A stretch of DNA of 64,000 nucleotides, taken from the NCBI GenBank assembly GCA_048885865.1, contig JBHLLF010000003.1:1-64000 (forward strand). The letters are read 5' to 3'. The notes beneath the pieces were generated by a model. The model did no database searches and was not told the origin of the DNA. It worked only from the letters and a program-made list of their open reading frames with translations. Source of the stretch: Candidatus Hermodarchaeota archaeon. Its GTDB lineage: Archaea > Asgardarchaeota > Thorarchaeia > Thorarchaeales > Thorarchaeaceae. Shown one piece after another: positions 3,470-37,438 of this stretch. The translations under genes and the position numbers were made by a program. Positions within the stretch are counted from its first letter, which is position 1, and each line of letters begins with the position of its first letter.

Positions 3470-4963
3470 TCATGGATTATATGCAAATGGATGACGTGCA
3501 GACTCCTTTCGCTGAATAATCTCCTCCACAGTTTGTCGCCCCTCAACTGCTCTTCGAATCGCAAAGCGAACAGCTCGGAAGTTGTTTATGTGTACTCTCT
3601 TTGGATTAACAGCATTTGGATGCACAAATGTATTAACTGCGATAACAAGGTCAGGAATGAGTTCCTCCGGGATTACTCCATCTGTGACCGTGCGTCTAAC
3701 AGCATCGGCTACAGCTCTCTGCGCGACTTCCATGACCATCTTCTTTTGCTTCTCACTCGTTATAGTTACAGTTGGTGCAAACACAGTGAGCGGTTCTAGG
3801 TCCTTGATGATGTTCGATGAATGGACTCCTTCGACAATCTTTCCAGCATTCTTCAACGCAGCACCAAGCGGTCCATCTCTAACTCCCATAACTAGATCGA
3901 CATGCGCCACCTCTTGCCCTTCTCCTGCCAATGCCTCGCCATGCAGTAATGTCAAATCTTCTACAACATTCGGTACTAGCCCCACCGCCTTTGGATAGCT
4001 TTCAGCAAGAAGCTCTCTTTCACCCAATTTAAAGGTCACAAGTCCACGCTCAATCAATTGAAGGTCTTCCAAACATGTCCTGAGTTCATCTATGTCTTCG
4101 TATCTCAAAGAATCACTCTCCTGTAGAGGGCGACGAGCCGATCCCACAGGGATTCCCATCATGTTCAATCCAGCCTTGATGGCTAGACCTCCACCTCGAT
4201 TGACAAAAATCCGGACTGTCTTCTGAATGCTTCTTTGAATTATCAGAGCCTCCTTGAGGTCACCTGTGGCGAGGGCAGCCTGCATCTTTAGATAGCGATC
4301 CGGAAAGATGTTTGCGCTGGCCAGGATTGCACCATCACATCCTGAGGCAAGTGCAGGAAGAGCTACCTCATCGTGCCCAATCATAACCTGAAACTCCTCT
4401 GGTTTGCGGACAAGAACTGTGGTTAGATGAACAAGATTCCCGCTTGAATCCTTCAAACCAATTATATTCTCAATCTCTCGCAATCCATCAATGACCCACC
4501 AATCAAGCATGACCCCGGTTACCTGAGGAATGTTATACACGATGATTGGTATTTCTGATGAATTCGCTATCTTCTCGAAGTGCTCATAGATCTCTTTTGT
4601 AGATGGTTTGAGGAAGTATGGAGTTACAACAAGAGCTGCGGAGGCTCCAAATTCTGCAGCCCTTCTTGTCAACTTAATCACATCATTTGTATATGAGGCT
4701 CCAGTACCTGCCACTACTGGCACTCGTCCAGCAGCAGCTTCGCAGGCTATTCGAATAGCATCCGCCTTCTCCTCGAATCGCATGCTGGTGAACTCGCCAG
4801 TTGTACCGCATGGAACCAATCCAGTAGCACCCTTTCCAATAGTATAATCAATCAGGCGTCGATACTGTTTCTCATTGACACCATGTTCATCAAACGGAGT
4901 AACCAGGGCAGGATAGACACCTTTGAATCGATAGGTATGACTCGCCATTTTCATCAACTCCAC
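3470..4963 (-). CDS. DapA/NAL-family class I aldolase fused to a C-terminal formaldehyde-activating enzyme (Fae) domain
   Basis: Aldolase motifs GTTGE, PYF, YNIPQ and Schiff-base GLKDSSG. The C-terminal GEALAGEGQEVAHVDL...VAQRAVADAV...FVHP...AIRRAVEG...SARHPF matches Fae. Real start is probably ATG 4954, overlapping the upstream TGA. Confidence 0.9.
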   Translation of the reverse strand: MELMKMASHTYRFKGVYPALVTPFDEHGVNEKQYRRLIDYTIGKGATGLVPCGTTGEFTSMRFEEKADAIRIACEAAAGRVPVVAGTGASYTNDVIKLTRRAAEFGASAALVVTPYFLKPSTKEIYEHFEKIANSSEIPIIVYNIPQVTGVMLDWWVIDGLREIENIIGLKDSSGNLVHLTTVLVRKPEEFQVMIGHDEVALPALASGCDGAILASANIFPDRYLKMQAALATGDLKEALIIQRSIQKTVRIFVNRGGGLAIKAGLNMMGIPVGSARRPLQESDSLRYEDIDELRTCLEDLQLIERGLVTFKLGERELLAESYPKAVGLVPNVVEDLTLLHGEALAGEGQEVAHVDLVMGVRDGPLGAALKNAGKIVEGVHSSNIIKDLEPLTVFAPTVTITSEKQKKMVMEVAQRAVADAVRRTVTDGVIPEELIPDLVIAVNTFVHPNAVNPKRVHINNFRAVRFAIRRAVEGRQTVEEIIQRKESARHPFAYNP

Positions 4964-6381
4964 ATCTGACCTAGAGCGGCACTTACTGCATTTTGAGTAG
5001 CAGCTCTAATCTCTCTGCGTTCACGCGTGTTCAAGTCTATGTCCAAAGCCATCAAAATTACATTATTCGATAGGACTTCTTTGGGGATTAGGTTCTTCTC
5101 AAGATGGTCTGCAACCGCTCGTGCAGCACCAGCCTGAACTGGTCCATAGAAGAGAGACGCCTGTCTCATAGATTCAATCTTGCTGATGGGAAACATCAAG
5201 CTTGAAGGTTTGACTGGCAAGTTTGGCTCAAGAATAACCGTGAGTGCTTCTCGGCCGACGTGCGGAGTGGTTAGTAGTGTCACAAATGCTCTACCAACTG
5301 AGCCTCTTTTTGAACCAGTTAGAATGCTCACTGTGACCTTTTCGTTGGAGCCCGTACCGTAATTGGTATCTGCCTCATTAATTTCCAAATCCATTTCTTG
5401 AAGAATATCTTTAATCGCAGTCAGTCCAGGAGCGGGATGAGTCAATGACTCGATCACTCCCAATTTCTCTAATTCTAGGCGGATTTCCTCTTTGAGTTCG
5501 AGTGTCAATGTCCCACCCGTATCAAGGGGCATTCTGCTCCTACCAGCTTTGATACCCATCATCTTCAGCGCAGCTTTTACTGGAGGTCCGCCACCATTCC
5601 TTGTGACAATCCTTGCCAGAGTCTGTGCATTCTGTTGCAGTTGAGCAGCCTTCGCATAATCGCCAGATTTCACAGACTCCATGATCTCCAGCCAGATGTG
5701 TGGGATTATGTTCGCAGATGCCATAATGGCAGCACTTGCACCAGCTGCTATGGCGGAGAGGAAGCATTCGTCATGACCAATCAGTACAGGCATCTTCCCC
5801 TTCAATTTCTGGATCAGTTCAACGGTGTGTCCGATGTTTCCACCGCTATCTTTGATTCCGACTATATTGTCAAGCTCAGCCAAATCCTCAACAACATTTG
5901 AGTTGAGGATACCTAGTGTGCATTGAGGGATATTGTACATTATTACGGGCAAATCTGCTTTTCTGGCAACTTCTGCGTAGTGGTCATAATATCCCTTGTC
6001 AGCAGGCCGTAGATAATAGGGAGAGATAATCAGTGCGGCATCACAGCCAATATCAGCCGCATATTGGCTTAGCGCTAAAGTGGCTCTAGTGCTATTCTGA
6101 CCAGTGCCAGCAATGACAGGCACTCTTCCATCAACATACTCTACAGCAAGCTTGAGAAGCTTCTTCCGCTCTTCTGTTCTCAAATATGAGAACTCGCCAG
6201 TTGTCCCGGCTGGTACGACTCCAGTCACTCCTTTTCCTATGGTGAAATCAATCACCTGTTTGAATCCGTCTTCAAGGATGTCTCCATCCTTTGTAAACGG
6301 TGTGACCAGTGCAGGCATTACCCCTTTTGGAACGAATCTCTTGCCCAACAGTTTCACCCTTGAGTGATGCGTGGCTGGCAT
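4954..6381 (-). CDS. Second DapA-family aldolase-Fae fusion (degenerate Fae N-terminus)
   Basis: GTTGE, PYY, YNIPQC, GIKDSGG; C-terminal LTVILEPNLPVKP...QASLFYGPVQAGAARAVAD is Fae-like. Confidence 0.88.
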   Translation of the reverse strand: MPATHHSRVKLLGKRFVPKGVMPALVTPFTKDGDILEDGFKQVIDFTIGKGVTGVVPAGTTGEFSYLRTEERKKLLKLAVEYVDGRVPVIAGTGQNSTRATLALSQYAADIGCDAALIISPYYLRPADKGYYDHYAEVARKADLPVIMYNIPQCTLGILNSNVVEDLAELDNIVGIKDSGGNIGHTVELIQKLKGKMPVLIGHDECFLSAIAAGASAAIMASANIIPHIWLEIMESVKSGDYAKAAQLQQNAQTLARIVTRNGGGPPVKAALKMMGIKAGRSRMPLDTGGTLTLELKEEIRLELEKLGVIESLTHPAPGLTAIKDILQEMDLEINEADTNYGTGSNEKVTVSILTGSKRGSVGRAFVTLLTTPHVGREALTVILEPNLPVKPSSLMFPISKIESMRQASLFYGPVQAGAARAVADHLEKNLIPKEVLSNNVILMALDIDLNTRERREIRAATQNAVSAALGQMWS

Positions 6382-7315: not shown

Positions 7316-9775
7316 TTAGGCTAGACTCACGCTTCTAGCCGCATACTGCAACGATTCATTGAAGTATTTTCCAATGATTTTGGCTATTGCAGGGCCAATA
7401 ACATAATTGATATCTCCTGGCATCAGCTGCTTCAGATTTGTCTTTGCAGTTATCCTACCGTTCCTACGGAGAGTTCTAATCTCCCGGTCCACTATCGATC
7501 TTGCTTCTGTCAGGGTCACTGGTTTGGCTGTTGAACCAATAAGACCTTGTTTAATGTCAGTTATAGACCTCATTACAAATATCGCTAGGTTCTCAATGTC
7601 GTTGCTCGGAATCATGTTGGTTGCCTTATGTGTTGGACACGTGTTATCTGGAGGCGTTTCGCCGCAGACTGAACATAGCTTTCGACCTCTACTAGTTCGG
7701 ATATAGAATGCAAGGAGATTGGCGCATTTCGAATCATCGTTTGTATTCCATTCAAGACCCTTGACACCTACTCTCCCAATAGCTCTAAACACAGTCTGAC
7801 TCTTAGTATAGATCCAAGTCAAGACATCAAGTGAGGCTTTCATACTCTCTGCCACTTTCTGTTCCTCAAGCTTGGCCTCGAGCACCAATTCCTCCTTGGC
7901 AAGCTTCTTTCTGCGCTCAGTTCTAAGAAACCGATGCATGATATCGTATGCAATTGCATAGTTATCAAAGTCCAACTGATCTGTCACGAGTTCGGTATCT
8001 ATCACGCCTTCAAAGACAGGACTTGGGGTGCTATCAAGTTCTGCTTTCGCAGCAGTCATATCCTTGTTGGATAGCCGAGCGTGCATCCATGAAGTGATGT
8101 CTGGGGCTTGTAGGTCAGGATAGGCCGTCTTCAGTTCATAGATTCTCTTGGAAGCTAAATCGATGAGGATTTCCTCTCGAAGAGCCTGAAGGTCAGTTTC
8201 GGGACTCTCATAGATACTCTTGAGAAGAGCCTTGATGCGCAAGAGATCCTGTTTGGAGCGGATATATGTTTCAACCACACGTGAGAGATTTGTAAGTATA
8301 CCTGATGTAAGATGCCATACTAGGTCGAACTTGAGAGCCGCAATGGTTTCACCATGGCGACGATGTCGAACTATATCTGAGGAGGAGGACACGCCAATAG
8401 AGCTGAGTGCACCCTGCTTCACTTTCTCACGCGCCTCAAGAAGTCGCTTGACATCTTCTGGAGAGGGGACTCTGGTTTTCTGCTTGAGAGCCTCCAGAAC
8501 TGTGACCTCAAAACCAATGAGCGAGTCCCGGTCCTTGGCTAGAGTTTCGATTGTGAACTTATCAAGCTCTGATGCCCTGAGACCCTGAGCCTTCAACGCT
8601 CCTTTTACAGGTCGTTCCAAAATGTTCTCAAGCTTGTCTATTGCTTTAAGCGATCGCTCCAAGTAATCCATCTCTACTTCGCTGATGGCAGAACCCTCTG
8701 CTTCGGTTTTCTCAGTCTTTGCTTCCTCCGCAATTCTGAAGCCCTTGACCAAGTCAGATGGGTCTGACAGACCCTTGCGCCTTAATGCTGCAGCGATATC
8801 CGTGGACGGTATTTGCAAGAGATGGGAGAGTAGGTCGAAAGCCTGTGCTGGGTTGGCCTCAATTGCTGATGCGACATCCTCAGACACTCTATCGACAAGT
8901 TGCTTCTCGTAGTCGTCAAGTGTGGTAGAGCTTGTCAATTGCATTTCAACTGCTGACAGAAAGTTTAGACGAATCTCATGAGCACGCTTGATGGTGGCCA
9001 GTTCATCAGCTGGTTTGCAGTATCTATTTGCCACATCCTTTGCGATTTCGCTCATTGTTGCTGGATATGTCATGGACTCAGCGATATGTGCACTGGCATA
9101 GCGTGGCTCACCCCAAATTCGCCTTAGGCCTTCTTTCAGGACTGTAATCTCAATTACTTCTGCATCGTGTTCTCGAAGGACCTCCTCCCGTAGAGACATT
9201 GCGGTTTCTTTGAGACCAGATGCTTTGGCATATAGCTCGTCTCTCAGATTTGAATCATATCTCGTCAACTGATTGAGAAAGTCAACATCATGATTCTGTG
9301 AGAATTCATTCGGAATCATTCCTAGAAATTCCTTGAGGATTTCCCCGGTTCTTGTGACTGTTTCATCATCAGCAGGATTTCTGCTACCAAGTTCATCGCA
9401 AAAGCGTATAACGAATTGACTGAGTATTTTCCCGACTGCGACTTCTTCTCGTTGTTTCGATCCAAGGAGTTTGCGGACTTCATTTTCCAACTGGACTCTT
9501 GTCTCTACACCAATCTTCTCCTGTTCTTCAATGGTGAGATTCTGAGCATCTTCAATAGTATGCAGACGGACTCCTTGATAGCTCTGCAAATAGAACGATG
9601 CAAAAGCTGCAAAGACTTCATCCAGAGGCCGGGGTTCAGGAATCATTTCATGGAATATCTGTCGAGCTCTTGTGCTTCTTAGATGAGTAGCTAAAGCCTC
9701 CCGAAGGATAAGTTCCTTGCCAGCCTCACTCATCTGACGTGTCTTAATGATCCAAGAACTTGACAAATCAGACAC
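7316..9775 (-). CDS. Large helical hypothetical protein with a C-terminal Zn finger
   Basis: 819-aa ORF with CSVCGETPPDNTCPTH; overlaps the upstream gene by 8 nt. Confidence 0.85.
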   Translation of the reverse strand: MSDLSSSWIIKTRQMSEAGKELILREALATHLRSTRARQIFHEMIPEPRPLDEVFAAFASFYLQSYQGVRLHTIEDAQNLTIEEQEKIGVETRVQLENEVRKLLGSKQREEVAVGKILSQFVIRFCDELGSRNPADDETVTRTGEILKEFLGMIPNEFSQNHDVDFLNQLTRYDSNLRDELYAKASGLKETAMSLREEVLREHDAEVIEITVLKEGLRRIWGEPRYASAHIAESMTYPATMSEIAKDVANRYCKPADELATIKRAHEIRLNFLSAVEMQLTSSTTLDDYEKQLVDRVSEDVASAIEANPAQAFDLLSHLLQIPSTDIAAALRRKGLSDPSDLVKGFRIAEEAKTEKTEAEGSAISEVEMDYLERSLKAIDKLENILERPVKGALKAQGLRASELDKFTIETLAKDRDSLIGFEVTVLEALKQKTRVPSPEDVKRLLEAREKVKQGALSSIGVSSSSDIVRHRRHGETIAALKFDLVWHLTSGILTNLSRVVETYIRSKQDLLRIKALLKSIYESPETDLQALREEILIDLASKRIYELKTAYPDLQAPDITSWMHARLSNKDMTAAKAELDSTPSPVFEGVIDTELVTDQLDFDNYAIAYDIMHRFLRTERRKKLAKEELVLEAKLEEQKVAESMKASLDVLTWIYTKSQTVFRAIGRVGVKGLEWNTNDDSKCANLLAFYIRTSRGRKLCSVCGETPPDNTCPTHKATNMIPSNDIENLAIFVMRSITDIKQGLIGSTAKPVTLTEARSIVDREIRTLRRNGRITAKTNLKQLMPGDINYVIGPAIAKIIGKYFNESLQYAARSVSLA

Positions 9776-12437
9776 CTCCTATGTTGCGAAGGTGAGTATC
9801 ACCTACGGCTACGGTGAGTTCATTGCCCGTCTGTTCATATGTCACCAGATAGATGATTTCCGGATTCTTAGGATCTCTTAGATATGCTCGGGTCGCACGT
9901 GGCAGCAATTTGCCTAGACTCCGAATCTCCGTGTTACGCAGGTATTCCAGAAAGTCTTCCCCAATCTCAATCGTCAATTCAGATGACACAGCTGATGCCT
10001 CCGAGAGCATTTGCTTCAGACTCTCTGCGAAGACTTGCTTCATTTTGTCTTGAGCTGCATCCATACTGTCTAACTGCTTGGTAAGCAGGTCTCGAAGACC
10101 AATATAGTGGTGCATTTCTGGCGGCGGAATGGGCTTCTCTGGAACTGGAATCTCCTCCATCTCAGGGAACTGATTATTCACCTCAACGATTCTCACGTCG
10201 AGAGATTGTGGACGTGTCGGCTCAGTTGGTAACGGAGGTGGTTCAATAACTGCGGGAGAAGTTTCACTTAGTGCTGGAGGAGGTACTTCCTCAGCCAATG
10301 CCTTTGCAGCCTCCAATGCTCTGCGATACTTCTCCATATCAATGGCATATTGGGCTTTCTCCTCATTATACTGAGATTCAGCTAGAGCAATAGCCTCTGC
10401 ACGTTTTCTGTTATTCTCACGAATGGGTTGATTTTCTGACTCAATGCGTTCGCAGGTTTGTTCCCAATCTTCTACAATTAGCTGGTATGCCCTTTCCTGC
10501 TGATTGGCTTCGAAAGTAACCTTATCTACAATGGCTTGCGCGGTTGAACCCAAACCTACTTTGTTATGGACATATCTAAGAAGTGCCAAGAATTTCTCAG
10601 GTGTTTTCATCTGAGGCTCAACCGTTTCCAGATACCCTCTGACCCATAGCCTAGCCTCACCTCTCCATTCATCGGGTTTTTGGGTCATGTTTTCTATGAA
10701 CTCGCCAATTTCTTTTGTTAGATCTGCGCCTTCACCAAGGACTTTGTCAATGACCTTTCTTATCAAGGTCTTTGATAGCAGAGTATCGGCGACACTGGGA
10801 ATGATATTCAGAACGAGGTCCTCAAAGGTTCCCAATATTGCCAAGATGGCCTGTCCATCCTGAGAGACTTCTTGGCTTTCTGACTCACTGGCATACTTGG
10901 AGGTAATCTCCGATTTCGTTATTTCAGCTACATCACTAAATCCGACAAGATCCCATATCTCAAAGCGTTCGAAGGCCTCCAGCATGTCCTTGTTGATGAT
11001 GGCCAGAATTTCATCCAAGTTCCGGTAAACTGAGCCTTCGTAGGACACCCTATCGAAAATGGCATTCATTTGAGAATGCAATTCGACATAGAACTTGTCG
11101 AAGAGCATCTTATCTATGGCTTCATCAGTGAACCTTTTCATCTCATCTTGGAATCTGTTCAAGGCAGTCATGAAAGCCTGGCGGGCAGCGGTAACGACTA
11201 GAAACTGATTCATTGCATCTGAGAAATAGCGGGTTGTGCGTTTCGCATAGAGGTTAAAGTATGATACAGTGCTGCCGAGCCTCCATGCTCGTACTTCTGG
11301 AATATCATAGAAGCCGCGCTGTGCAGATTTCACCAGCTCTTCTGTGAGTGCCTCTGCGATTATCTTTCTGAATCCAACGAATAAGTCAGCATTCATGTCA
11401 ATTTGATTCAATATCTCCGTCTTATGATCAGATAAAGAGAGTGTCTTTCCTGACGTGACATGTTGCTCCGTTATCTTCTCAAAAGACTCAACAGAATCGG
11501 CGACTAATGATACAAACTCGTCCAACTCCCTCTTGAATGAGTGCAGATCACGGAGTGCCACCTCACTTTTACCAAGAAATTCGGTGAACTTCCCAGTGAT
11601 AGCATTTGCAATATCGACTTCTTCTATGCTATAGGCGTACATATTTAGCTCACTAAGAATTGCCCGTCCAGCTTCTGGAACCTTGACAGCAATTGCATCT
11701 AGACCGCGGGGAGTGAGTATTCTATGCTTGAAATGCCTGAGAACCTTGTCTTCACTCTCCCGTGGCAGGAAAAATTCGAGAAGAGTACGGTCCATGACTT
11801 TTACCCCAGGCGGAAGAAGCGTGAAGTCTTCTCGGAAGTTCATGGTCACTTCAATCTCTTTGTCCACATGCTCAGATTTGAGCTGAAGAGAGTCCCAAGA
11901 TGCTTGAAAACGTCTGTCCAGCATCTCGACGAAGATAACGCGATTGAGGCGGTCATTGAACCTTCTGAGCACGGGCAGGCCATGAGTTTCGTAGCTCATT
12001 CCATTGCTGATAATTGCACTCTCTATATCGGACATCTTCTTGGAGAGCGTCTGCATGTGTTCGTCAATCTTGAATGGATCAACTGCGCCCTTTTCCCAAC
12101 TTAGGATGACAACATGAGATCCAATACCTTCGGAAGTACCTCCGGCAACAACAAGTTGCTCAGGAAGAACTCCAGGACCTGGTTTTCGTTCCAAGTCCCA
12201 TTCAAGTGATAGAAGTTCGAGACCCTCAGCGTCCAGGAGAGCATCACGTATCGTGAAAACAAGAGGGGCGATATTCATCGCTACCACATCCGAGTTCTCC
12301 TCCATCATGCTCCCTGAACCCACAGCACTTCCTAAAGGATAGCCTAGATTCGTGGTAGTACCAAGAACTGAAGCAGATGCCATTCTAATGGCCTCCACTG
12401 TGCTCGGAGTGTCGACTTTCTTTTCGGTCCGACTCAT
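9768..12437 (-). CDS. Large hypothetical protein: possible N-terminal longin/roadblock-like domain, helical body, coiled coil with Pro-rich loop
   Basis: 889-aa ORF; N-terminal beta-beta-alpha-beta-beta-beta-alpha pattern; coiled coil flanking PPPALSETSPAVIEPPPLP. Confidence 0.8.
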   Translation of the reverse strand: MSRTEKKVDTPSTVEAIRMASASVLGTTTNLGYPLGSAVGSGSMMEENSDVVAMNIAPLVFTIRDALLDAEGLELLSLEWDLERKPGPGVLPEQLVVAGGTSEGIGSHVVILSWEKGAVDPFKIDEHMQTLSKKMSDIESAIISNGMSYETHGLPVLRRFNDRLNRVIFVEMLDRRFQASWDSLQLKSEHVDKEIEVTMNFREDFTLLPPGVKVMDRTLLEFFLPRESEDKVLRHFKHRILTPRGLDAIAVKVPEAGRAILSELNMYAYSIEEVDIANAITGKFTEFLGKSEVALRDLHSFKRELDEFVSLVADSVESFEKITEQHVTSGKTLSLSDHKTEILNQIDMNADLFVGFRKIIAEALTEELVKSAQRGFYDIPEVRAWRLGSTVSYFNLYAKRTTRYFSDAMNQFLVVTAARQAFMTALNRFQDEMKRFTDEAIDKMLFDKFYVELHSQMNAIFDRVSYEGSVYRNLDEILAIINKDMLEAFERFEIWDLVGFSDVAEITKSEITSKYASESESQEVSQDGQAILAILGTFEDLVLNIIPSVADTLLSKTLIRKVIDKVLGEGADLTKEIGEFIENMTQKPDEWRGEARLWVRGYLETVEPQMKTPEKFLALLRYVHNKVGLGSTAQAIVDKVTFEANQQERAYQLIVEDWEQTCERIESENQPIRENNRKRAEAIALAESQYNEEKAQYAIDMEKYRRALEAAKALAEEVPPPALSETSPAVIEPPPLPTEPTRPQSLDVRIVEVNNQFPEMEEIPVPEKPIPPPEMHHYIGLRDLLTKQLDSMDAAQDKMKQVFAESLKQMLSEASAVSSELTIEIGEDFLEYLRNTEIRSLGKLLPRATRAYLRDPKNPEIIYLVTYEQTGNELTVAVGDTHLRNIGGV

Positions 12438-15385: not shown

Positions 15386-17308
15386 CTATGGATACTTGGC
15401 TGTCCACTCCAGCGATAGCCTGCGAATTGTTTCCTTAGTGGGCAGTCCTGTTTCCAAGTCCCACCCCCTAAGCCTGTAGTAGTCATTAAGCATCGGTTCA
15501 AGATCCACCACTTGGCCTTTGCCAGGGCCTTCAGGCATCGGTTCATCAGTGAAGCGAGCGGGAAGGTTGTCATCCTTACGCGAAATGCCTTCTCTCGCAT
15601 TGAATAGTCGCTTTAAGTTGACCTGTCTCTCCGCTATCTCAATGAGCGTGTCTACGTTGCCAAACTCCTTGACACCCGTTGCCAAAGGCAACATATCTGC
15701 GAAATCCTGCATCCAGAATATTGGTGGCCACGAAACCGAGTACCAACAGACAATCAACGTATCACGGATGCAATAGCTATTCTCAGACTCGAATACTGCA
15801 GTTGCCTTGTATTTCTCTGTGTACGGGTCCACAATCTCTGGGAGCTTGTCGGCGCCCCAGCGCTCAGCAGCTATATCTTCATAACCCAGTTGGTCAACGA
15901 CAACAAGGCTTCTAAGATGGTCGGCTCCTCGAGCGCCAGTCGCATGCCCTAGACCAATGCTCCGATGAGTTCTTCCATCTTGGCCTGATATCTCCATTCC
16001 CTTTACATGAAGCGCGTATTGCTCTGCGCCTTTGCCTATCTTCTGTGCGGCTTTAGCACTCCCTTCTGCGAGAATATCACCGAATCCTTCGCGCCTCCCC
16101 ATCATCTCCAAAAGACGAATGGTCATCGCACGGTCTCCCCATTCTAGGCGAAGGCCGCCAGTGTCCTTCTCATCTATTATCCCGTTCTCAAATGCCTCCA
16201 TAGCAAAACCAATTGTCGCGCCAGCTGAAATGATGTCCATTCCATATCTATTGCATATCTGATTGGCCTTAAGCGTGGTTGGATAATCGTCTATACCTAG
16301 CGAGCTGCCAAAAGCCATGAGACCCTCGTACTCAGGACCTTCTTCAAGTGTCCCAGCAAAAAGGCCCTCACGTACATAATTGACTTTCTTGCAGCCAAGG
16401 CTGCAGCCAAAGCAGGCTCGGTCAGAAATAGTATATCGAGGACGAATATAATCGGCTGCCAGCTTTTCCCAGCCTGAGAATACACCTGTTCTATGGTTAT
16501 ATGTAGGCAGCTCTCCAATCTCTTGTTTCACTGCAGTTAGAATCCATGTTCCCCAACGACCCATCTCCTGAGCTTGGGGATTATCTCTGACTCTTTGATG
16601 AGCTTTCTTCGCTAGATCAGTAAAGCCTTCATGGTCATACACCTCGACAGACCCGTGACCACGAATCGCAATAGCTTTCACGTTCTTTGAACCAAGGACT
16701 GCACCCATCCCGGTCCGTCCTGCGGCTCTGGCATTATTAATTATCACTGCAGAGAAGCGAACTTTATTCTCCCCTGCAGGACCAATCGCCGCAACCTGCA
16801 TATCAGGGTCCTTGTGTTTGGCCTTTATTGCAGCCGTAACATCATTTGTCGTCATTCCCCAGAAATCGCTTGCATCAATAATCTGGAGGTCATCGTCTTC
16901 GATGAGAATATAGACAGGCTTCTCAGCTGCACCTTCGACAACTAGCATATCATATCCAGCATATTTCAACTCTGCTCCAAGAAAACCACCAACATGAGAC
17001 TCGCCCCATATTCCTGTCAAAGCAGCCTTTGATACAAACACAGTTCTCCCGCTCATGGGCCATAGTGTGCCAGTGATGGGGCCTGTGGCGATTAGCAATT
17101 TGTTCATAGGACTAAGTGCGTCTGTCCGCCCAGGCACTTCTTGGTAGAGGAGTTTGGCTGCAAAGCCATCACCCCCAATGTAGTCACGAATCCATTCGGC
17201 TGGAAGGGGTTCAGACTTGAACTCACCATCATTTAGAAGCACACGGAGTATCTTTCCCTTATAGCCGCCATACTTCAAGTCAGCTCTCTCCGCTAGAACT
17301 AGTTGCAT
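15386..17308 (-). CDS. aor: Tungsten aldehyde:ferredoxin oxidoreductase
   Basis: IGPAGE, AAGRTGMGAVLGSKNVKA, C..C...C, EGPEYE, YY.LRGWD motifs. Confidence 0.95.
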   Translation of the reverse strand: MQLVLAERADLKYGGYKGKILRVLLNDGEFKSEPLPAEWIRDYIGGDGFAAKLLYQEVPGRTDALSPMNKLLIATGPITGTLWPMSGRTVFVSKAALTGIWGESHVGGFLGAELKYAGYDMLVVEGAAEKPVYILIEDDDLQIIDASDFWGMTTNDVTAAIKAKHKDPDMQVAAIGPAGENKVRFSAVIINNARAAGRTGMGAVLGSKNVKAIAIRGHGSVEVYDHEGFTDLAKKAHQRVRDNPQAQEMGRWGTWILTAVKQEIGELPTYNHRTGVFSGWEKLAADYIRPRYTISDRACFGCSLGCKKVNYVREGLFAGTLEEGPEYEGLMAFGSSLGIDDYPTTLKANQICNRYGMDIISAGATIGFAMEAFENGIIDEKDTGGLRLEWGDRAMTIRLLEMMGRREGFGDILAEGSAKAAQKIGKGAEQYALHVKGMEISGQDGRTHRSIGLGHATGARGADHLRSLVVVDQLGYEDIAAERWGADKLPEIVDPYTEKYKATAVFESENSYCIRDTLIVCWYSVSWPPIFWMQDFADMLPLATGVKEFGNVDTLIEIAERQVNLKRLFNAREGISRKDDNLPARFTDEPMPEGPGKGQVVDLEPMLNDYYRLRGWDLETGLPTKETIRRLSLEWTAKYP

Positions 17309-17876
17309 CAGCAGTGCGCTGTATCTCTTTGAGGTAGCTTACAATCTTGGAGTGACGGTCAACTGTCCGTACTTTAGATACAGGCCCATAGACTATGGCG
17401 CTAGTAGGACAAACCTTGGCGCACTCAGGGTCTCCATCACAATGGTCACACTTGATAATCCTCATCCGCTCGTTGTCTAGAAGAATCACACCATTGACAC
17501 AAGCACCAACACAGGACTTGCATAGGATGCATTTTTCCTCAACAAGGAATGTCATCTTTGATATTGGGTCCCGTCGCATGGCATAGACTGGGCAAATATC
17601 AATACAAGGTGCCGTTTCGCAAGGTGCACAGACATTTGGGATGTCCACGCCAAGATCGTCATACTTTATTATCTTCAGACGTGCCAGGCTTGGCTGGAAT
17701 TTGCCTTCATGTTTTGCAGAGCAGGCCAATTCACATATTCGACAACCAGTACATTTGGTGAAATCAACAGACAATTGCGATATCAGATGGGCCACCTCAG
17801 GAGTCAACATGATTGCATTGCTGCGGAAAAAGCTTCCTGAACGACAGTTTGCATCTATTCCACTTCCATAACCCAT
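17280..17876 (-). CDS. 4Fe-4S dicluster protein (AOR electron-transfer subunit)
   Basis: CTGCRICELAC, CAPCETAPC...CP, CILCKSC...C, KCDHC...C...CP; real start near 17790. Confidence 0.93.
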   Translation of the reverse strand: MGYGSGIDANCRSGSFFRSNAIMLTPEVAHLISQLSVDFTKCTGCRICELACSAKHEGKFQPSLARLKIIKYDDLGVDIPNVCAPCETAPCIDICPVYAMRRDPISKMTFLVEEKCILCKSCVGACVNGVILLDNERMRIIKCDHCDGDPECAKVCPTSAIVYGPVSKVRTVDRHSKIVSYLKEIQRTADATSSSGES

Positions 17877-18940
17877 CCATGCGGGTCTTCTCGCTCTCCT
17901 GATTGGATACCCACTATCTCATCATAGAGCTTCTGAGTTATTGGACCAATTCCTCCATCGCCAACAGAATGAGGAGTGTCCTTATAGTGAAGAGTGCCGA
18001 CAGGAGCGATTATTGCTGCAGTACCACATCCAAAGATCTCTTTGACCTTTCCATCTTTGAGGCCGCTCATGACTTCATCAATCGATATCTTTCGTTCCTT
18101 GACATTCAAGCCCCAGTCCGCGGCAAGCTGCAACACGGAGTCCCGTGTAATTCCAGGAAGAATCGTGCCTGCTAGTGGAGGCGTCGCCAATTCATCATCA
18201 AACACCACACAGATGTTCATTGTGCCAACTTCCTCGAGATACTTCCTATCATGTGCATCAAGCCACAGGACTTGTGAGTAGCCAGCCCGATTGGCCTCCG
18301 TACCTGCCAAAAGTCCGGCAGCATAGTTACCCATGGTCTTAGCTGAACCTATGCCACCATCTGCGGCTCTTACATGCTGTTCAGCAATCATGATCCCAAC
18401 AGGATTGAATCCTTCTTTGAAATAGGGCCCAACAGGACTTAGAATGACATAATACAGGTATTCCGTGGAAGGTCTAACACCGAGCTTTGGTTCAGTGCCA
18501 ATCAATGTTGGGCGTATATACAATGAGCTACCAGGAACTTGTGGAACCCAGTCACGCTCAATATGAATGAGTTTCTTCAGCGACTCCAAAGCAAATTCGT
18601 TATCCAGAGTAGGCATCACCATTCTCTCTGCCGAAGCATTCAACCGCTCTATGTTCTTGTCAGGTCTAAAGAGAAATACTCGGTCTTCACGTCGATAGGC
18701 CTTCAATCCTTCGAAGATTCCTTGGCCATAGTGTAGTACAAGAGCCGCAGGATTCAATGAGAGGGATTGGAATGGTCCGATTAGAGGGTTTTTCCACTTC
18801 CCGTCTGAGTAAGTCATTGAGAACATGTGGTCGGTGAATATTGTGCCAAAAGCGACACTCATAACATCTGTCGGCTTAGGTTTTCGATTCTCCTCCGGAA
18901 CAAGATCAATCCTCAAATCCATCGTTGTTCCCTCGAACAA
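17855..18940 (-). CDS. ilvE: Branched-chain amino acid aminotransferase
   Basis: LHYGQGIFEGLKAY, LYIRP, AKTMGNY, EEVGTMN, ILPGITRDS, GTAA. Confidence 0.96.
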   Translation of the reverse strand: MFEGTTMDLRIDLVPEENRKPKPTDVMSVAFGTIFTDHMFSMTYSDGKWKNPLIGPFQSLSLNPAALVLHYGQGIFEGLKAYRREDRVFLFRPDKNIERLNASAERMVMPTLDNEFALESLKKLIHIERDWVPQVPGSSLYIRPTLIGTEPKLGVRPSTEYLYYVILSPVGPYFKEGFNPVGIMIAEQHVRAADGGIGSAKTMGNYAAGLLAGTEANRAGYSQVLWLDAHDRKYLEEVGTMNICVVFDDELATPPLAGTILPGITRDSVLQLAADWGLNVKERKISIDEVMSGLKDGKVKEIFGCGTAAIIAPVGTLHYKDTPHSVGDGGIGPITQKLYDEIVGIQSGEREDPHGWVMEVE

Positions 18941-19025
18941 TGGTCTATTCTACCTCCTCATAAAGTCTGGGTATTATCCGGATTTGTGAATCATTTATTA
19001 GTAGAACTCGGAATGAGCCAATTAG

Positions 19026-19421
19026 GTGCATCCAATGGGTGAGGATGAGGAGAAGACCGAGAAATCGAAAAAGAAGAAAGCGGCTGATTACACTGAGCTC
19101 GAATTTGAGCTTGGAGAATTAGAATTTGAAGCTAAGGGCAAATCGAAGGTTGTAGAGCGCATGTTTTACACACTTCTGGAGAAGCTCGAAACAGGAAAGC
19201 TGAAAGCAATCACAGCAGCAGTCAAGGAGCTTGAGGATGCTGTGGATCTGGAGGAAGAAGAGGAAGAGGAGGAGGAGGAGGAGGAGGAAGAGGAAGAGGA
19301 GGAGATGGAGGAGGAAGAGGAATCATACAGTGAACCACCTCCAAAATGGGATTTTCTTGATACAGAAACGCCTCCTGAGTCAGAACCTGAGAAAGAAGCC
19401 CGCGAAGCAGAATCTGAGTAG
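19026..19421 (+). CDS. Acidic hypothetical protein with poly-Glu tract
   Basis: 131 aa; GAG/GAA run at about 19250-19322. Confidence 0.75.
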   Translation: MHPMGEDEEKTEKSKKKKAADYTELEFELGELEFEAKGKSKVVERMFYTLLEKLETGKLKAITAAVKELEDAVDLEEEEEEEEEEEEEEEEEEMEEEEESYSEPPPKWDFLDTETPPESEPEKEAREAESE

Positions 19422-19470
19422 AGTCCGACACTGTTCGCATGTGCTTAAGAAAACCCTTAAGCCTGGATGA

Positions 19471-20109
19471 ATGATACGTGAAATGCGATTATATGGAGAG
19501 CTGCCCATGAGTCACCACACGGGAGGTCCAAGGGATGATTATTACCTTGACCCCAAAGACGTACTAGCTCAATATAGTGTTGAATGGGTCTCTCTCCGGA
19601 AATCCTACGAAGAACTCAAGGCTCAGCTAGACCAAGTGAAGGCTGAGCTCTCTGAACTTGACAGTAAATTAGAGAAAGGGGAGATATCTGAAAAAGAGCA
19701 CATTCAGGAATATAGAGAGAAATGGCGTGTTTCGACACAAATGGTCCAGGTCAAAAGAGAAGTGGAAGGTCGCCTCTATGAGATCCAGAAAGAAATACGC
19801 ACGGCAAATAGACAGCTGAAACAACTTGAAGAAGAGAAGCATCGAAGAGAACGCCTGGAACAGGAAAAGAGCAATGCTATGATTGAATGGATGTCGTTGA
19901 AGCAGGGCTTCGAGTTGGTGGAGCAGAAACGGCGAGAAATCACAGGCGAAATGGACAAGCTGGAGGTTCAGAGAAGGCAAGGTTCAATTTCAGAACAGAA
20001 TTATAGAGGTCAGCGAGTTGAGCAAATTAAAGAGCTGGCCCAGTTGTCAACTGTTGAATCAGATGTGAAGAGGAGACTAGCCGAGCTTCTTGAGATAATA
20101 AGAAAATGA
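19471..20109 (+). CDS. CdvA-like coiled-coil protein
   Basis: Long heptads with two L..G(E/S)IS..(H/Y) hairpin turns typical of CdvA-type coiled coils. Confidence 0.65.
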   Translation: MIREMRLYGELPMSHHTGGPRDDYYLDPKDVLAQYSVEWVSLRKSYEELKAQLDQVKAELSELDSKLEKGEISEKEHIQEYREKWRVSTQMVQVKREVEGRLYEIQKEIRTANRQLKQLEEEKHRRERLEQEKSNAMIEWMSLKQGFELVEQKRREITGEMDKLEVQRRQGSISEQNYRGQRVEQIKELAQLSTVESDVKRRLAELLEIIRK

Positions 20110-20113
20110 GAAG

Positions 20114-20137
20114 GCAGACCCCTATGACGGGGCCTGC
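20114..20137. terminator. GC-rich hairpin between convergent genes
   Basis: GCAG-A-CCCC...GGGG-C-CTGC. Confidence 0.45.
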
Positions 20138-20148
20138 GGAACTAGGAG

Positions 20149-21495
20149 TTATGCGTAGAATCCTTGAGCAATCATTGCATCAGCCACTTTCAGGAAGCCT
20201 GCAATGTTTGCACCTAGGACGTAATTGCCTTTTTCGCCGAATTTCTCGGAGGTCTTGTAGGCATTTTCATGGATGGCAACCATGATGCCATGCAATCTCT
20301 TGTCGACTTCCTCTCGGGTCCAGAAGTATCGCTGACTGTTCTGAGCCATCTCAAGTCCAGAAACCGAAACGCCACCAGCGTTAGCTGCTTTTCCAGGACC
20401 ATAGAGCACCTTAGCCTCATGGAATATCTCGACGGCTTCCGGTATGCATGGCATATTTGCTCCCTCACCGACAGCTAAAACGCCATTATCTACAAGTGCC
20501 TGTGCCTCTTTGGCATCTACCTCGTTCTGAGTAGCACTTGGGAGTGCGATATCACACTTCAATTCCCATGGGCTCCCACCAGCAGTATAGTCTACCTTGA
20601 AGTGTTCACCGTACTCTTTGATGCGTCCTCTCCGAACATTCTTCAACTCCATGATCCATGCAAGCTTCTCTCTGTCGATACCATCTGGATCATGAATCCA
20701 GCCGCTTGAGTCGCTTAGAGCAATAACCTTGGCACCTAGATCAATGCATTTCTCAGTGGCATATTGAGCAACATTACCGGAACCTGAAACGACAGCTTTC
20801 TTGCCCTTGATGTCTTCGCCTCTTGTCTTCAACATTTCCTCAACAAAGTAGACACAGCCATAGCCAGTTGCCTCAGGACGAATAAGGGACCCGCCATAGG
20901 TGGGGCCTTTTCCAGTAAGGACGCAGGTACCATGAACGTTTGTGGCTTTTCTAAAAGCGCCGTAGAGATATCCAATCTCCCGCGCTCCAACGCCAATGTC
21001 ACCAGCTGGAACATCTATGAATTGGCCGATATGCCTGTAGAGCTCAAGCATGAAGCTAGTACAGAAATTCTCAACCTCAGCATCAGTCTTGCCCTTTGGA
21101 TCGAAGTCAGAGCCACCTTTTCCACCCCCCATAGGCAGCGTTGTCAGGCTGTTCTTGAAGACCTGCTCGAACCCTAGAAATTTCAAAATCCCTTGGGTCA
21201 CAGTTGGATGGAAGCGAAGGCCTCCCTTGTACGGGCCAATTGCGCTATTGAATTGGATTCGGAAACCTCTGTTGACCTGAATCTTGCCATCTCGATCTTT
21301 CCAAGGAATCCTGAATTGAATTATGCGCTCCGGTTCAGTTATTCTTTCCAGAATCGAGAACTCCTTATATTTTGGATACTTCTTTACTGCAGGTTCCAGA
21401 GATTCCAATACCTCGAGAACTGCCTGATGAAAGACTTTCTGATGTGGGTCCTTCTCAACGACCTTGTTGTATACACTCTCTATGTAGTTATCCAA
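20149..21495 (-). CDS. gdhA: NADP-type glutamate dehydrogenase
   Basis: GPYKGGLRFHP, GGGKGGSDFDP, DVPAGDIGVG, RPEATGYG, SGSGNV, EGANMP. Confidence 0.97.
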   Translation of the reverse strand: MDNYIESVYNKVVEKDPHQKVFHQAVLEVLESLEPAVKKYPKYKEFSILERITEPERIIQFRIPWKDRDGKIQVNRGFRIQFNSAIGPYKGGLRFHPTVTQGILKFLGFEQVFKNSLTTLPMGGGKGGSDFDPKGKTDAEVENFCTSFMLELYRHIGQFIDVPAGDIGVGAREIGYLYGAFRKATNVHGTCVLTGKGPTYGGSLIRPEATGYGCVYFVEEMLKTRGEDIKGKKAVVSGSGNVAQYATEKCIDLGAKVIALSDSSGWIHDPDGIDREKLAWIMELKNVRRGRIKEYGEHFKVDYTAGGSPWELKCDIALPSATQNEVDAKEAQALVDNGVLAVGEGANMPCIPEAVEIFHEAKVLYGPGKAANAGGVSVSGLEMAQNSQRYFWTREEVDKRLHGIMVAIHENAYKTSEKFGEKGNYVLGANIAGFLKVADAMIAQGFYA

Positions 21496-32678: not shown

Positions 32679-33905
32679 GTGCGCGTCTATGTAAGTGTGG
32701 GAGTAATTATGATATCTCACCTTCTCCACTTGGAATGTCCACAGTGTAGCAGAAGTCATTCGGCTGAGGCACATGCAACATTCTGTGTGTGCGGTTCACC
32801 TCTCTTTGCTGTTTACGATCTATTCAGTGTAATCGAGGATATTCAAAGAGAGCAATTTCCATCAAAAGTCAATTCAATGTGGAGATATTCTCAGCTTTTG
32901 CCTGTCAAATCACCATCCTATATTTTCAGCTTAGGAGAAGGATGGACTCCGCTCATCAATACGCGACGTCTCGGAAAACATCTGGGCTTGAGGTTTCTTA
33001 GTATTAAGGATGAGGCTCAGAATCCAACTGGTTCCTTCAAGGACCGTGGCCTGTGTGCCGCAGTATCCAAACACATGGAACTTGGCTCTACATCATTTGC
33101 GTTGCCATCAGCGGGGAATGCAGCAGTGTCCGCAAGCGCCTATAGTGCTGCGGGAGGAGCTGAATGCCACATCTTCATGCCTTCAGACACACCTGAACCC
33201 TTTTTCCAAGATTGCGTTGCCTATGGTGCTGAAACTGTTCATGTTGATGGCAATATTACTGATTGCGCGAAAAGCATGAAGCAAACCGCAGGCGAATGGA
33301 CAGATCTCTCAACCACAAAAGAACCCTATAGAGTGGAGGGTAAGAAAACTCTTGCATTCGAAATTGCAGAACAGCTCGGATGGAGGGTTCCTGATGCGAT
33401 AATCTGTCCAACAGGAGGTGGCACAGCTCTCATTGGCATTTGGAAGGGCTTCGATGAATTGGAGGCATTGGGTCTAATAGAGAGCAATAGACCCAGAATG
33501 TATGCGGCTCAGAGTGCAGGATGTGCACCAATCGTTAGGGCTGTTGAACAGGGGAGCGATGAAATTCAACCGTGGCTAAATAGTGAAACCGAAGCATTGG
33601 GGCTGAGAGTGCCAAGTCCTTTTGCTGGAAGACTGATTCTTGCTGCAATTCGCCAGTCAGGAGGTGGCGCTGTAGCAGTAGCTGAACAGGAAATTGAGCC
33701 TTGCCATAGAATTGCGGCCCGAATGGAAGGAATGGACTTTTGTCCGGAAGCAGCTGTTGGACTTGCAGGCGTTCGGAATCTGGTTGAGATGGGAGAAATT
33801 GATTTTGATGAAGAGGTTGTGCTATTGAATACGGGCTCTGGGGCCAGATATTACTATGTTCAACAGAGGCAAGGAAAAACTGGAAAAGCCAAAGGCACGC
33901 CATAG
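32679..33905 (+). CDS. thrC: Threonine synthase (PLP fold II)
   Basis: SLGEG.TPL, NPTGSFKDRG, SAGNA, PTGGG, N-terminal Cys Zn ribbon. Confidence 0.88.
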   Translation: MRVYVSVGVIMISHLLHLECPQCSRSHSAEAHATFCVCGSPLFAVYDLFSVIEDIQREQFPSKVNSMWRYSQLLPVKSPSYIFSLGEGWTPLINTRRLGKHLGLRFLSIKDEAQNPTGSFKDRGLCAAVSKHMELGSTSFALPSAGNAAVSASAYSAAGGAECHIFMPSDTPEPFFQDCVAYGAETVHVDGNITDCAKSMKQTAGEWTDLSTTKEPYRVEGKKTLAFEIAEQLGWRVPDAIICPTGGGTALIGIWKGFDELEALGLIESNRPRMYAAQSAGCAPIVRAVEQGSDEIQPWLNSETEALGLRVPSPFAGRLILAAIRQSGGGAVAVAEQEIEPCHRIAARMEGMDFCPEAAVGLAGVRNLVEMGEIDFDEEVVLLNTGSGARYYYVQQRQGKTGKAKGTP

Positions 33906-35802: not shown

Positions 35803-36468
35803 TCACCGTTGAGCCTCACGCTCACGCTCTTCCTGAGCCTCCTTCTCAAGGTCAGCTAGGAGTTCGTCAATTCTCTTTTCTTCGGACTTGACTTGCTCTG
35901 CAGGTTTTGCAGTTGTAGTAGCGGGGGTCTGCAGGGAAGGAAGAACTCCCTCCTTCTCAAGAAGAACCTCTGCTTCCATAGCCTCTAGCTGGCGTTCAAT
36001 CCGCTCATCAGACTCTACAGTCGATTCACCTGTTGAGAGGTCCTCAGAAAGCAACTCTCCAGCAATAGTGATGTGCTCAAATGACTCAGAGAGCTTATCT
36101 AGTTGCATCTGAATCTCTGTTGGGCTCAGCATTGCGCGGGCATCTGTCAGGGCGTCGTTTGCAATGGTGAAAGCCCTCAATACCTCGGCCTGATCCTTTG
36201 CCTCCTCTATGTTAAGGAGCGCGGTTTCAAGGGTCAGATACTGCTGCTGGTATCGTCCACGTCTACTTTCCAATTCAACAACGATTGAAAGGTGTGAACG
36301 GGCTGTATCTCGATCTCCTTGCGACATGGCCTCCTTGGCCTTCTTCTGCTCCTCTGATCTTCGTGTATCTAGTCTTCTAATTCGCAAAGTCAGAGCATTC
36401 ATAGTACCTTTGATTTCGAGCATGCCTCGTTCGGCATCTACCTTTTTCTTTCCACTCAGGAAGCCCAT
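35803..36468 (-). CDS. ESCRT-III (Snf7/Vps20/32/60-like) protein
   Basis: Start at MGFLSGKKK; basic helical hairpin KAKEAM.QGD...A..HL; acidic C-half; MIM1-like RIDELLADLE. Confidence 0.85.
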   Translation of the reverse strand: MGFLSGKKKVDAERGMLEIKGTMNALTLRIRRLDTRRSEEQKKAKEAMSQGDRDTARSHLSIVVELESRRGRYQQQYLTLETALLNIEEAKDQAEVLRAFTIANDALTDARAMLSPTEIQMQLDKLSESFEHITIAGELLSEDLSTGESTVESDERIERQLEAMEAEVLLEKEGVLPSLQTPATTTAKPAEQVKSEEKRIDELLADLEKEAQEEREREAQR

Positions 36469-36559
36469 AACGTCCACCGAGGATAGGCCTTGTTGTATTG
36501 TGATGTCATCACTTTGCCCATTTAAACGATTGGAATACAGTCCTTGACATCCAACACCT

Positions 36560-37438
36560 ATGTTTCTCAAGGACAATAGGGTTTTAGAGCCGTTTACTTG
36601 GAATGAAGATGAGGCTCAATTCATGACACTAACAAGAGACCTTGCCAAGGCTGTAGATGCTGCAAAAGACGCGATACTGAACAATCTTGAAGAATCAGCT
36701 AGGCTAACAGGTGAAACTAATCAGTATGGGGACAAGACACTGCTTCTGGATCTGAAAGCTGAAGATGCAATCCTCGAAGTCATTCAACAGGTAGATACTC
36801 CAATGATGATTCTTAGTGAAGAGCAAGGTCTCATTATGCCCGAAGATAGACCAGAATATGCTGCAATCATTGATCCGATAGATGGTTCAGCTAACATTGA
36901 GAGAGGGTTACCCCTTTGCTCCATTGGCATATCTGCAGTCCGCTTTTCGGAGAAGATGACTACTGATGATGCCGAGATTAGCATTATTGAGTCTGTCTTC
37001 TCAGATGAAACCTTCATTGCTGAGAAGGGACAAGGAGTCAGAAGAAATGGAAAGACCGTAAAAGTCTCAGACTCAATACCGTTGGACAGAGCCATCATCT
37101 CCTATGATACAAAGAAATCAGGCGATGAATCATTCTTAATGAGTTCCTTGAGGGTGATACGGGGAGTCCATGATATAAGAAGGTCTGCGACCAATCTACT
37201 GGATCTATGTTGGGTAGCGTCGGGCGCTCTCAATGCGATGGTGGATTTGAGGGGCATGCTCCCAATTGTCCACCTATCAGGTACACACATGGTATTCGAA
37301 GCAGGAGGTTATGTGGCTGAAGCGGGTGGTAATAGACTCAATCTGCCTCTTGTGGAAGATCAGATGATGAGCTTTGTAGCAGCATCAGATGAAGCTACAG
37401 CAAATGAGATACTTGCACTCTTTAGGGGCGAATTATGA
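36560..37438 (+). CDS. Inositol monophosphatase / FBPase (SuhB family)
   Basis: D..AE, SEE.G, IDPIDGS.N; lacks the usual WD (VH in its place). Confidence 0.88.
   Translation: MFLKDNRVLEPFTWNEDEAQFMTLTRDLAKAVDAAKDAILNNLEESARLTGETNQYGDKTLLLDLKAEDAILEVIQQVDTPMMILSEEQGLIMPEDRPEYAAIIDPIDGSANIERGLPLCSIGISAVRFSEKMTTDDAEISIIESVFSDETFIAEKGQGVRRNGKTVKVSDSIPLDRAIISYDTKKSGDESFLMSSLRVIRGVHDIRRSATNLLDLCWVASGALNAMVDLRGMLPIVHLSGTHMVFEAGGYVAEAGGNRLNLPLVEDQMMSFVAASDEATANEILALFRGEL

Follow-up and report, generated by a model that had tools for sequence, protein, structure and literature searches.

Paired DapA–Fae fusion proteins with complementary Fae domains in Thorarchaeota: a probable enzyme of pterin- and pyruvate-linked one-carbon transfer

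The window analysed here is a stretch of 64,000 nucleotides from contig JBHLLF010000003.1 of the Candidatus Hermodarchaeota archaeon assembly GCA_048885865.1 (family Thorarchaeaceae). Two adjacent genes on its minus strand, gene B (4954–6381; longest open reading frame 475 aa) and, downstream of it, gene A (3470–4948), each encode a DapA-family barrel followed by a C-terminal Fae domain. The pair is real, conserved and misannotated, and its mechanism can plausibly be reconstructed: A and B are probably one enzyme that carries a one-carbon unit between a pterin and pyruvate, most likely in the breakdown of a four-carbon keto acid related to homoserine. The specific proposal, that they are the subunits of a heteromeric pyruvate hydroxymethyltransferase acting on 4-hydroxy-2-oxobutanoate (HOB), is in our estimation evenly balanced between right and wrong.

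Conservation and distribution of the fusions

Among 85 other Thorarchaeaceae genomes, 78 had a Fae match and 70 had exactly two; the pair is therefore not a chance arrangement. None of these matches scored like the canonical Fae-Hps of other Asgard groups. Single-gene fusions with an intact Fae domain are highly conserved in Bathyarchaeia (85–90 % among many) and also occur in Lokiarchaeia, and tandem pairs were additionally found in some Bathyarchaeia, Thermoplasmata and Anaerolineae. The whole fusion family amounts to about a dozen clusters at 50 % identity. A TrmI-like tRNA methyltransferase gene comes after the intact fusion in 35 loci, among them L043, L044 and many Bathyarchaeia loci; this is probably operon packing. 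Literature searches on the fusion, on Fae in Thorarchaeota or Bathyarchaeia and on natural HOB routes returned nothing relevant, in agreement with the initial annotation of this DNA, which knew of no characterised example.

The aldolase barrels

Both open reading frames matched PF00701 (E 4e-74 and 2e-76) and the Fae family PF08714 (E 4e-34 and 1.5e-27) above the curated cut-offs, which confirms the domain content first assigned to them. The barrels (A, 4103–4927; B, 5521–6327; both minus strand) are 43 % identical to each other and display the features of DapA/NAL class I aldolases, namely PF00701 membership, the Thr44/45 loop and the equivalents of Tyr133 and Lys161. The motifs GTTGE and GHDE are present in both, and the Schiff-base lysine is Lys168 in A (codon 4453–4451; residues of A are counted from the ATG at 4954) and Lys177 in B (codon 5853–5851). 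The initial annotation had described GTTGE, the Tyr relay and the Schiff-base Lys as kept in both proteins; this held for all but the relay position Tyr107, which is Phe in A. It had also reported the loss of the Arg that binds aspartate semialdehyde, and the Arg138 position is indeed Val in A and Cys in B.

The closest homologues come from Thorarchaeota and bear the name 4-hydroxy-tetrahydrodipicolinate synthase, and both open reading frames exceed the cut-off of TIGR00674, the model for dihydrodipicolinate synthase (DHDPS; 230 vs 206 bits), which accounts for the database label of DHDPS or DapA. Nevertheless, Arg138 was missing in every fusion examined, including all of the Bathyarchaeia-type copies (0/103), and Asp187 and Asn248 of DHDPS are likewise replaced. 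In a quick tree, the source of all tree values given here, the fusion barrels formed a single clade (SH-aLRT 83) apart from E. coli DapA. Only weak Rossmann matches were found for DapB in the five genomes searched, this one (87 % complete) included. Asd was present in 8 of 31 near-complete Thorarchaeaceae genomes and was not found in this genome; its absence was rechecked with the TIGR00978 profile, since E. coli Asd as a BLAST query can miss archaeal Asd. The separate clade, the loss of Arg138, the missing DapB and the lack of Asd here and in 23 of the 31 relatives together uphold the original view that these are not lysine-pathway DHDPS enzymes. Its further suggestion, a Schiff-base aldolase of the pyruvate type that works with a Fae site, is likewise supported.

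The barrels also scored below the cut-offs of the NanA, KdgD, HpaI and KDG aldolase models. A third DapA-family gene of the genome (contig C10; L005:1459–2382) is unfused and very divergent, and by eye resembles a KdgD-type dehydratase. If the reading given here holds, the label ‘DapA’ is incorrect for hundreds of genes of Thorarchaeota, Bathyarchaeia, Lokiarchaeia and Anaerolineae, and so is any lysine synthesis deduced from them.

A probable Fae site divided between two proteins

The Fae domains of A (3485–3940) and B (4972–5346) are the only Fae domains in this genome. The absence of a Fae match had been named at the outset as evidence that would count against the proposal; PF08714 recognizes both domains, but TIGR03126 (cut-off 118 bits) recognizes only that of A (127 bits, compared with 87 for B). 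Three classes of Fae domain, intact, A-type and B-type, were distinguished among the fusions, the latter two with complementary residues. Relative to intact fusions and Fae-Hps, A-type copies retain G-E, His22, Asp24, Thr73, Phe119, His121, N-N and the HPF arm and have lost the E-P-N-L loop and G-P, whereas B-type copies retain the E-P-N-L loop, R-Q-A, Y-G-P and Gln88 and have lost the rest. Accordingly placed in the pair itself are, in A, G-E-A-L, His351 (the counterpart of His22; codon 3904–3902), Asp353, Thr397, F-V-H-P, N-N and the HPF arm (3493–3485), with the E-P-N-L loop and G-P missing and Thr at the Lys71 position. B has Glu378, the E385-P-N-L388 loop, R406-Q-A, Y-G-P and Gln416 (the counterpart of Gln88) and is without His22, Thr73 and the C-terminal HPF arm. 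Judged by these residues, each Fae domain of the pair has degenerated where the other is preserved, and the two are complementary halves of the intact domain seen in the single-gene fusions of Bathyarchaeia and Lokiarchaeia.

The active site of Fae lies between adjacent subunits of a homopentamer, with His22 as the acid. When the Fae domains of A and B were folded together, the complex score was 0.89 (best of three controls, 0.02), a pass that may stem from likeness to the solved Fae pentamer; of 80 solved complexes 58 attain the mark set for this score, as do 2 of 110 mismatched pairs. The runs shared at least 93 % of contacts, with a partner pLDDT of at least 88. The informative part of the model is its orientation rather than its score. 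Of two possible ring orientations, the one predicted sets the His351/Asp353/Thr397/HPF face of A on the loop and Gln416 of B. Positions conserved only in A-type copies lie in the interface of A in 12 of 26 cases and in that of B in none (0/26; Fisher p 1e-4), while for positions conserved only in B-type copies the figures are 8 of 12 in the interface of B and 3 of 12 in that of A (Fisher p 0.1).

Neither polypeptide of the pair has all of His22, Asp24, Thr73, Gln88, the Leu53 loop and the C-terminal arm, and the complete set occurs only at the modelled A–B interface. A single heteromeric Fae site formed by A and B is likely, since the predicted complex joins exactly the retained faces. The model suggests a closed heterodimeric site rather than a ring. 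Such an arrangement would also do away with the conflict between the five-fold symmetry of a ring and a barrel assembly of four subunits. The initial annotation had described two independent bifunctional enzymes; the residue classes and the predicted orientation point instead to complementary halves.

In the tree, A-type and B-type barrels from Thorarchaeota, Bathyarchaeia, Thermoplasmata and Anaerolineae fell into two separate clades (SH-aLRT 95 and 96), with one A-type exception. This pattern across four phyla indicates a single old duplication; the split therefore arose once, and the two genes have travelled together since. The A/B pair would thus be a clean case of one inter-subunit active site shared out between two paralogues. 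Another A/B pair, proteins P0365 and P0369, comprises a B without the Schiff-base Lys and an A with a degenerate pyruvate loop, with the Fae motifs retained.

Gene X and a proposed link to 4-hydroxy-2-oxobutanoate

Outside Thorarchaeota, an unannotated gene, X (about 426–427 aa), was present in 56 of 83 fusion loci, and a second gene, Y (315 aa), in 10 others; the two never occurred together, giving X or Y in 66 of the 83. Neither has a Pfam, NCBIfam or PDB sequence match, and their Atlas labels are hypothetical or weak U32 only. They are weakly similar to each other (hhalign E 6e-4, probability 28 %), and both are predicted to fold as TIM barrels, among whose structural matches none stands out (best Z for X, 12). 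Attempts to name either were dropped, as there was no family match and the folds were generic TIM barrels. Conserved Glu, His and Lys-x-Glu residues of X lie at strand ends. The copy in this genome encodes 426 aa on the minus strand of another contig (C18:22711–24006; L135:8712–10007) and is 73 % identical to a Bathyarchaeia copy. X was found in 78 of 85 Thorarchaeaceae relatives and 226 of 400 Asgard genomes, and also in bacteria. In the Lokiarchaeia family f22 its presence goes with a second Fae match, which speaks for a tie to the fusion: X was present in 69 of 71 genomes with at least two Fae matches and in 10 of 57 with one, a tally copied by hand from non-independent kin in which the second match was assumed to be the fusion.

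The partners of X differ between lineages. X also occurs in Asgard families without Fae, of which five genomes were tested and had neither Mch nor the fusion. In these families X is the first gene of an operon that also encodes a class I aminotransferase, a homoserine dehydrogenase (Hom) lacking the ACT domain, and AOR, and the two genomes tested had no Asd; the same four genes were found in one bacterial contig. In five other loci X adjoins a PanB-like gene, followed once by FolD. PanB has been reported to partly rescue a HOB-aldolase selection in P. putida (bioRxiv 10.1101/2025.02.17.638773). From gene order, HOB would be the only metabolite compatible with all three sets of partners (fusion, Hom/AOR and PanB-like), being both the keto acid of homoserine and pyruvate plus one carbon. 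The gene context of X thus favours HOB, already named as an example by the initial annotation, as the likeliest substrate.

Two bacterial loci have sulfur-amino-acid genes in the vicinity of X, and the only Met/Cys lyase homologue of this genome passes no family cut-off. A dapA gene beside X on a Polaromonas plasmid proved to be a canonical, Arg-bearing DHDPS and was left out of the evidence. In several Thorarchaeota a threonine-synthase-like gene (here L135:10830–12323, plus strand) is found two genes away from X; it has Ile at the position of the pyridoxal phosphate-binding Lys and a C-terminal HTH domain, and is probably a regulator. A Y homologue is located in an Enterobacter plasmid cluster (L145:8901–16686) with a phosphotransferase, a 2-hydroxyacid dehydrogenase, an aminotransferase and iron redox enzymes, which looks like a small-molecule biosynthetic cluster.

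Proposed reaction

The net reaction would be HOB + tetrahydropterin carrier = pyruvate + methylene-carrier. Each barrel would cleave HOB through its Lys Schiff base, and the freed formaldehyde would be caught at the composite Fae site, which in the model is rebuilt by packing of the His/Asp/Thr/HPF face of A on the loop/Gln face of B. HOB would most likely be supplied by the product of the unlinked gene X. If X is a metal barrel, it might expel a leaving group at C4 of a 2-oxo acid and add water; the methionine keto acid would be the most abundant such candidate for protein degraders and is our tentative first guess for its substrate. A wider scheme can be drawn, possible but doubtful, in which X or Y makes HOB from a C4 2-oxo acid, perhaps that of methionine. 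Three modules would be interchangeable for the removal of HOB, one of them the DapA–Fae heteromer feeding methylene-pterin. If true, this would be an undescribed amino-acid catabolism in abundant sediment archaea and some anaerobic bacteria, and a natural reverse of the engineered homoserine cycle, and would offer a channelling HOB synthase ready for use. HOB has so far been regarded as an intermediate of synthetic biology; it would then be a metabolite that occurs in nature and joins amino-acid turnover with the pterin one-carbon pool in major subsurface lineages.

Several observations weigh against the HOB hydroxymethyltransferase. Thr stands at the Lys71 position of Fae in 100 % of intact and A-type fusions and Lys in 100 % of Fae-Hps. 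The G-x-D-E and Ser pattern of the barrels resembles that of NanA and YagE, which bind hydroxylated aldehydes larger than formaldehyde. The link to HOB runs through X, a generic TIM barrel of putative role, and in Thorarchaeota X is not adjacent to the A/B pair. Related genomes are not independent of one another, and the Lokiarchaeia tally has the limits given above. For the catabolic direction in particular, two ThrC-like genes of this genome retain the catalytic Lys, and ThrB is missing from Hom-positive Lokiarchaeia also, so that its absence is weak evidence.

Direction of the route and alternative explanations

We somewhat favour a catabolic over a synthetic direction. Among the 31 near-complete Thorarchaeaceae genomes, Hom was found in one and ThrB and MetE-like genes in none, and searches of this genome found no Hom, Asd, ThrB, MetA, MetH catalytic domain or IlvD. 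HOB made here would therefore be without a clear biosynthetic outlet, which favours breakdown. About 22 Lokiarchaeia have Hom beside X, and both of those tested also have Asd, so a synthetic role would be redundant there.

The reverse possibility is that the same heteromer runs the same reaction biosynthetically, from pyruvate and methylene-carrier to HOB and on to homoserine and threonine (or to methionine via X), replacing Ask, Asd and Hom as a natural forward homoserine shunt. We consider this unlikely. The scarcity of Hom (1/31) and Asd (8/31), neither of them in this genome, would be explained by it, and the two Lys-bearing ThrC-like genes, the Lys-less ThrC–HTH gene near X and the high conservation of the fusion among many Bathyarchaeia are in its favour; yet ThrB, MetE-like genes, the MetA/MetH catalytic domain and IlvD are absent, and an ApgM-like candidate kinase remained below its cut-off (296 vs 446 bits). 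Moreover, many Lokiarchaeia carry the fusion and X alongside Hom, and the alternative X module ends in AOR without Asd; AOR in peptide fermenters usually oxidises aldehydes.

A different substrate class is suggested by the NanA/YagE-like acceptor side and the loss of Lys71: the barrels may cleave a larger 4-hydroxy-2-oxo acid of the sugar-acid type, with the Fae-like domains as a pterin-binding regulatory or dimerising module. Retention of the pair in hosts without Mch and RFAP synthase would fit, as would the sugar-acid and 4-hydroxy-2-oxovalerate aldolase genes that adjoin Y homologues. However, His22 and the HPF arm are retained in all classified intact (98–100 %) and A-type copies, suggesting catalysis, the occurrence of X with PanB-like genes and Hom speaks for a C4/C1 substrate, no recurrent sugar-acid genes were found near the fusion, and no IlvD/YagF-type dehydratase was found in the genome. 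We regard this explanation as unlikely as well.

A substitute for ketopantoate hydroxymethyltransferase, joining ketoisovalerate and a one-carbon unit for CoA synthesis, would involve chemistry of the same type, and X sometimes adjoins PanB-like genes. PanB itself is present in 76 of 86 Thorarchaeaceae, this genome included, and a tertiary-carbon donor would be unusual for a Schiff-base barrel; the replacement of PanB was rejected on the former ground and is very unlikely. A true DHDPS with an accessory Fae domain, as the TIGR00674 score would have it, is hardly credible given the replaced substrate residues, the separate clade and the DapB and Asd results above.

The one-carbon carrier

The initial annotation had tied the pair strictly to tetrahydromethanopterin (H4MPT) and had proposed that hosts lacking H4MPT metabolism would speak against it. 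In a survey that included many incomplete genomes, Mch was missing from 11 of 13 Anaerolineae and Thermoplasmata hosts, one of them a 3.6-Mb single-contig chromosome, and was present in all 17 other archaeal hosts; it is also present in the genome studied here. FolD was found in all six of the Mch-negative hosts tested. RFAP synthase was not found in 13 hosts (3 Thorarchaeota, 4 Bathyarchaeia and 6 others) but is present in Lokiarchaeia. Genomes G000, G313, G387, G400, G401, G416 and G424, all Thorarchaeota or Bathyarchaeia, have Mch but no detectable RFAP synthase.

The proposed objection thus applies to part of the hosts, and a strict coupling to H4MPT is not sustained. The enzyme may use an H4MPT-like compound, tetrahydrofolate or some other pterin, or hosts may scavenge the carrier. 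If the proposed reaction is true, an aldolase with a built-in formaldehyde trap would be a missing piece of homoserine-cycle engineering, above all if tetrahydrofolate is accepted.

Gene starts and neighbouring genes

Candidate starts of gene A (end 3470) are 4963, 4954 and 4948. The likely starts are ATG 4948 for A (492 aa) and TTG 6348 for B (464 aa), on the basis of homologue N-termini and a 5-nt gap between the genes in L046, a locus from a complete genome. The TGA/ATG overlap at 4956–4952 first described for the pair exists in the DNA, where the alternative ATG 4954 of A overlaps the stop of B, but the likely starts leave a 5-nt gap and the overlap is probably unused. Promoter and terminator scans gave results at chance level.

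The neighbours of the pair in Thorarchaeota carry little functional information. At 7316–12437 (minus strand) are two large overlapping open reading frames (819 and 889 aa) without a Pfam match, syntenic in L046. An AOR gene, also syntenic in L046, a branched-chain aminotransferase gene and a glutamate dehydrogenase-like gene at 15386–21495, 9–15 kb from the pair, may be a general amino-acid catabolic block. The genome has neither Hom nor ThrB, and a gene of the threonine-synthase family that retains the catalytic Lys is at 32679–33905 (plus strand). Judged by eye, the window also encodes an ESCRT-III/Snf7-like coiled-coil protein (35803–36576, minus strand) and a vWA-domain protein (62645–63925, minus strand). 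A 1146-aa protein (51746–55186, plus strand) with no Pfam match at 1e-5 has an N-terminus resembling carboxylate-amine ligases by eye, followed by beta-rich repeats.

Comparison with known systems

With the DapA/NAL aldolases (DHDPS, NanA, YagE, KDG aldolase and HOGA) the fusion barrels share the GxTG pyruvate loop, Tyr133 and the Schiff-base Lys, at 30–37 % identity to E. coli DapA, NanA and YagE. They differ in forming their own clade with YNIP-x-x-TG, G-H/W-D-E and A-S-A-N motifs and a fused Fae domain.

Fae of Methylorubrum extorquens (PDB 1Y5Y/1Y60) matches A at E 6e-23, with His22, Asp24, Thr73, Gln88 and the HPF arm aligned. The M. extorquens protein is a free homopentamer (10 chains in 2 entries), whereas A and B each retain one face and are predicted to close as a heterodimer rather than a ring.

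Archaeal Fae-Hps (NF009833) likewise combines a Fae domain with a TIM-barrel enzyme presumed to produce or consume formaldehyde, with 36 % identity over the Fae domain. The two fusion proteins score 98 and 78 against its cut-off of 274, and they differ from it in their DapA-family (PF00701) barrel, the C-terminal position of Fae, Thr for Lys71 and the division of the Fae site over two genes. Neither Hps nor Phi was found in this genome, but a replacement of Fae-Hps in pentose synthesis was rejected, as Lokiarchaeia carry both fusions and the two are thus not alternatives.

PanB and the engineered HOB aldolases of the homoserine cycle, whose aldolase step is called non-native in the engineering literature, join a methylene-carrier and a 2-oxo acid to a hydroxymethyl 2-oxo acid, as proposed for the fusion. 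PanB-like genes occupy the place of the fusion beside X, although PanB is a single-domain metal-dependent enzyme. The fusion is therefore Fae-Hps-like in design and PanB-like in its proposed net chemistry, and is a member of neither family.

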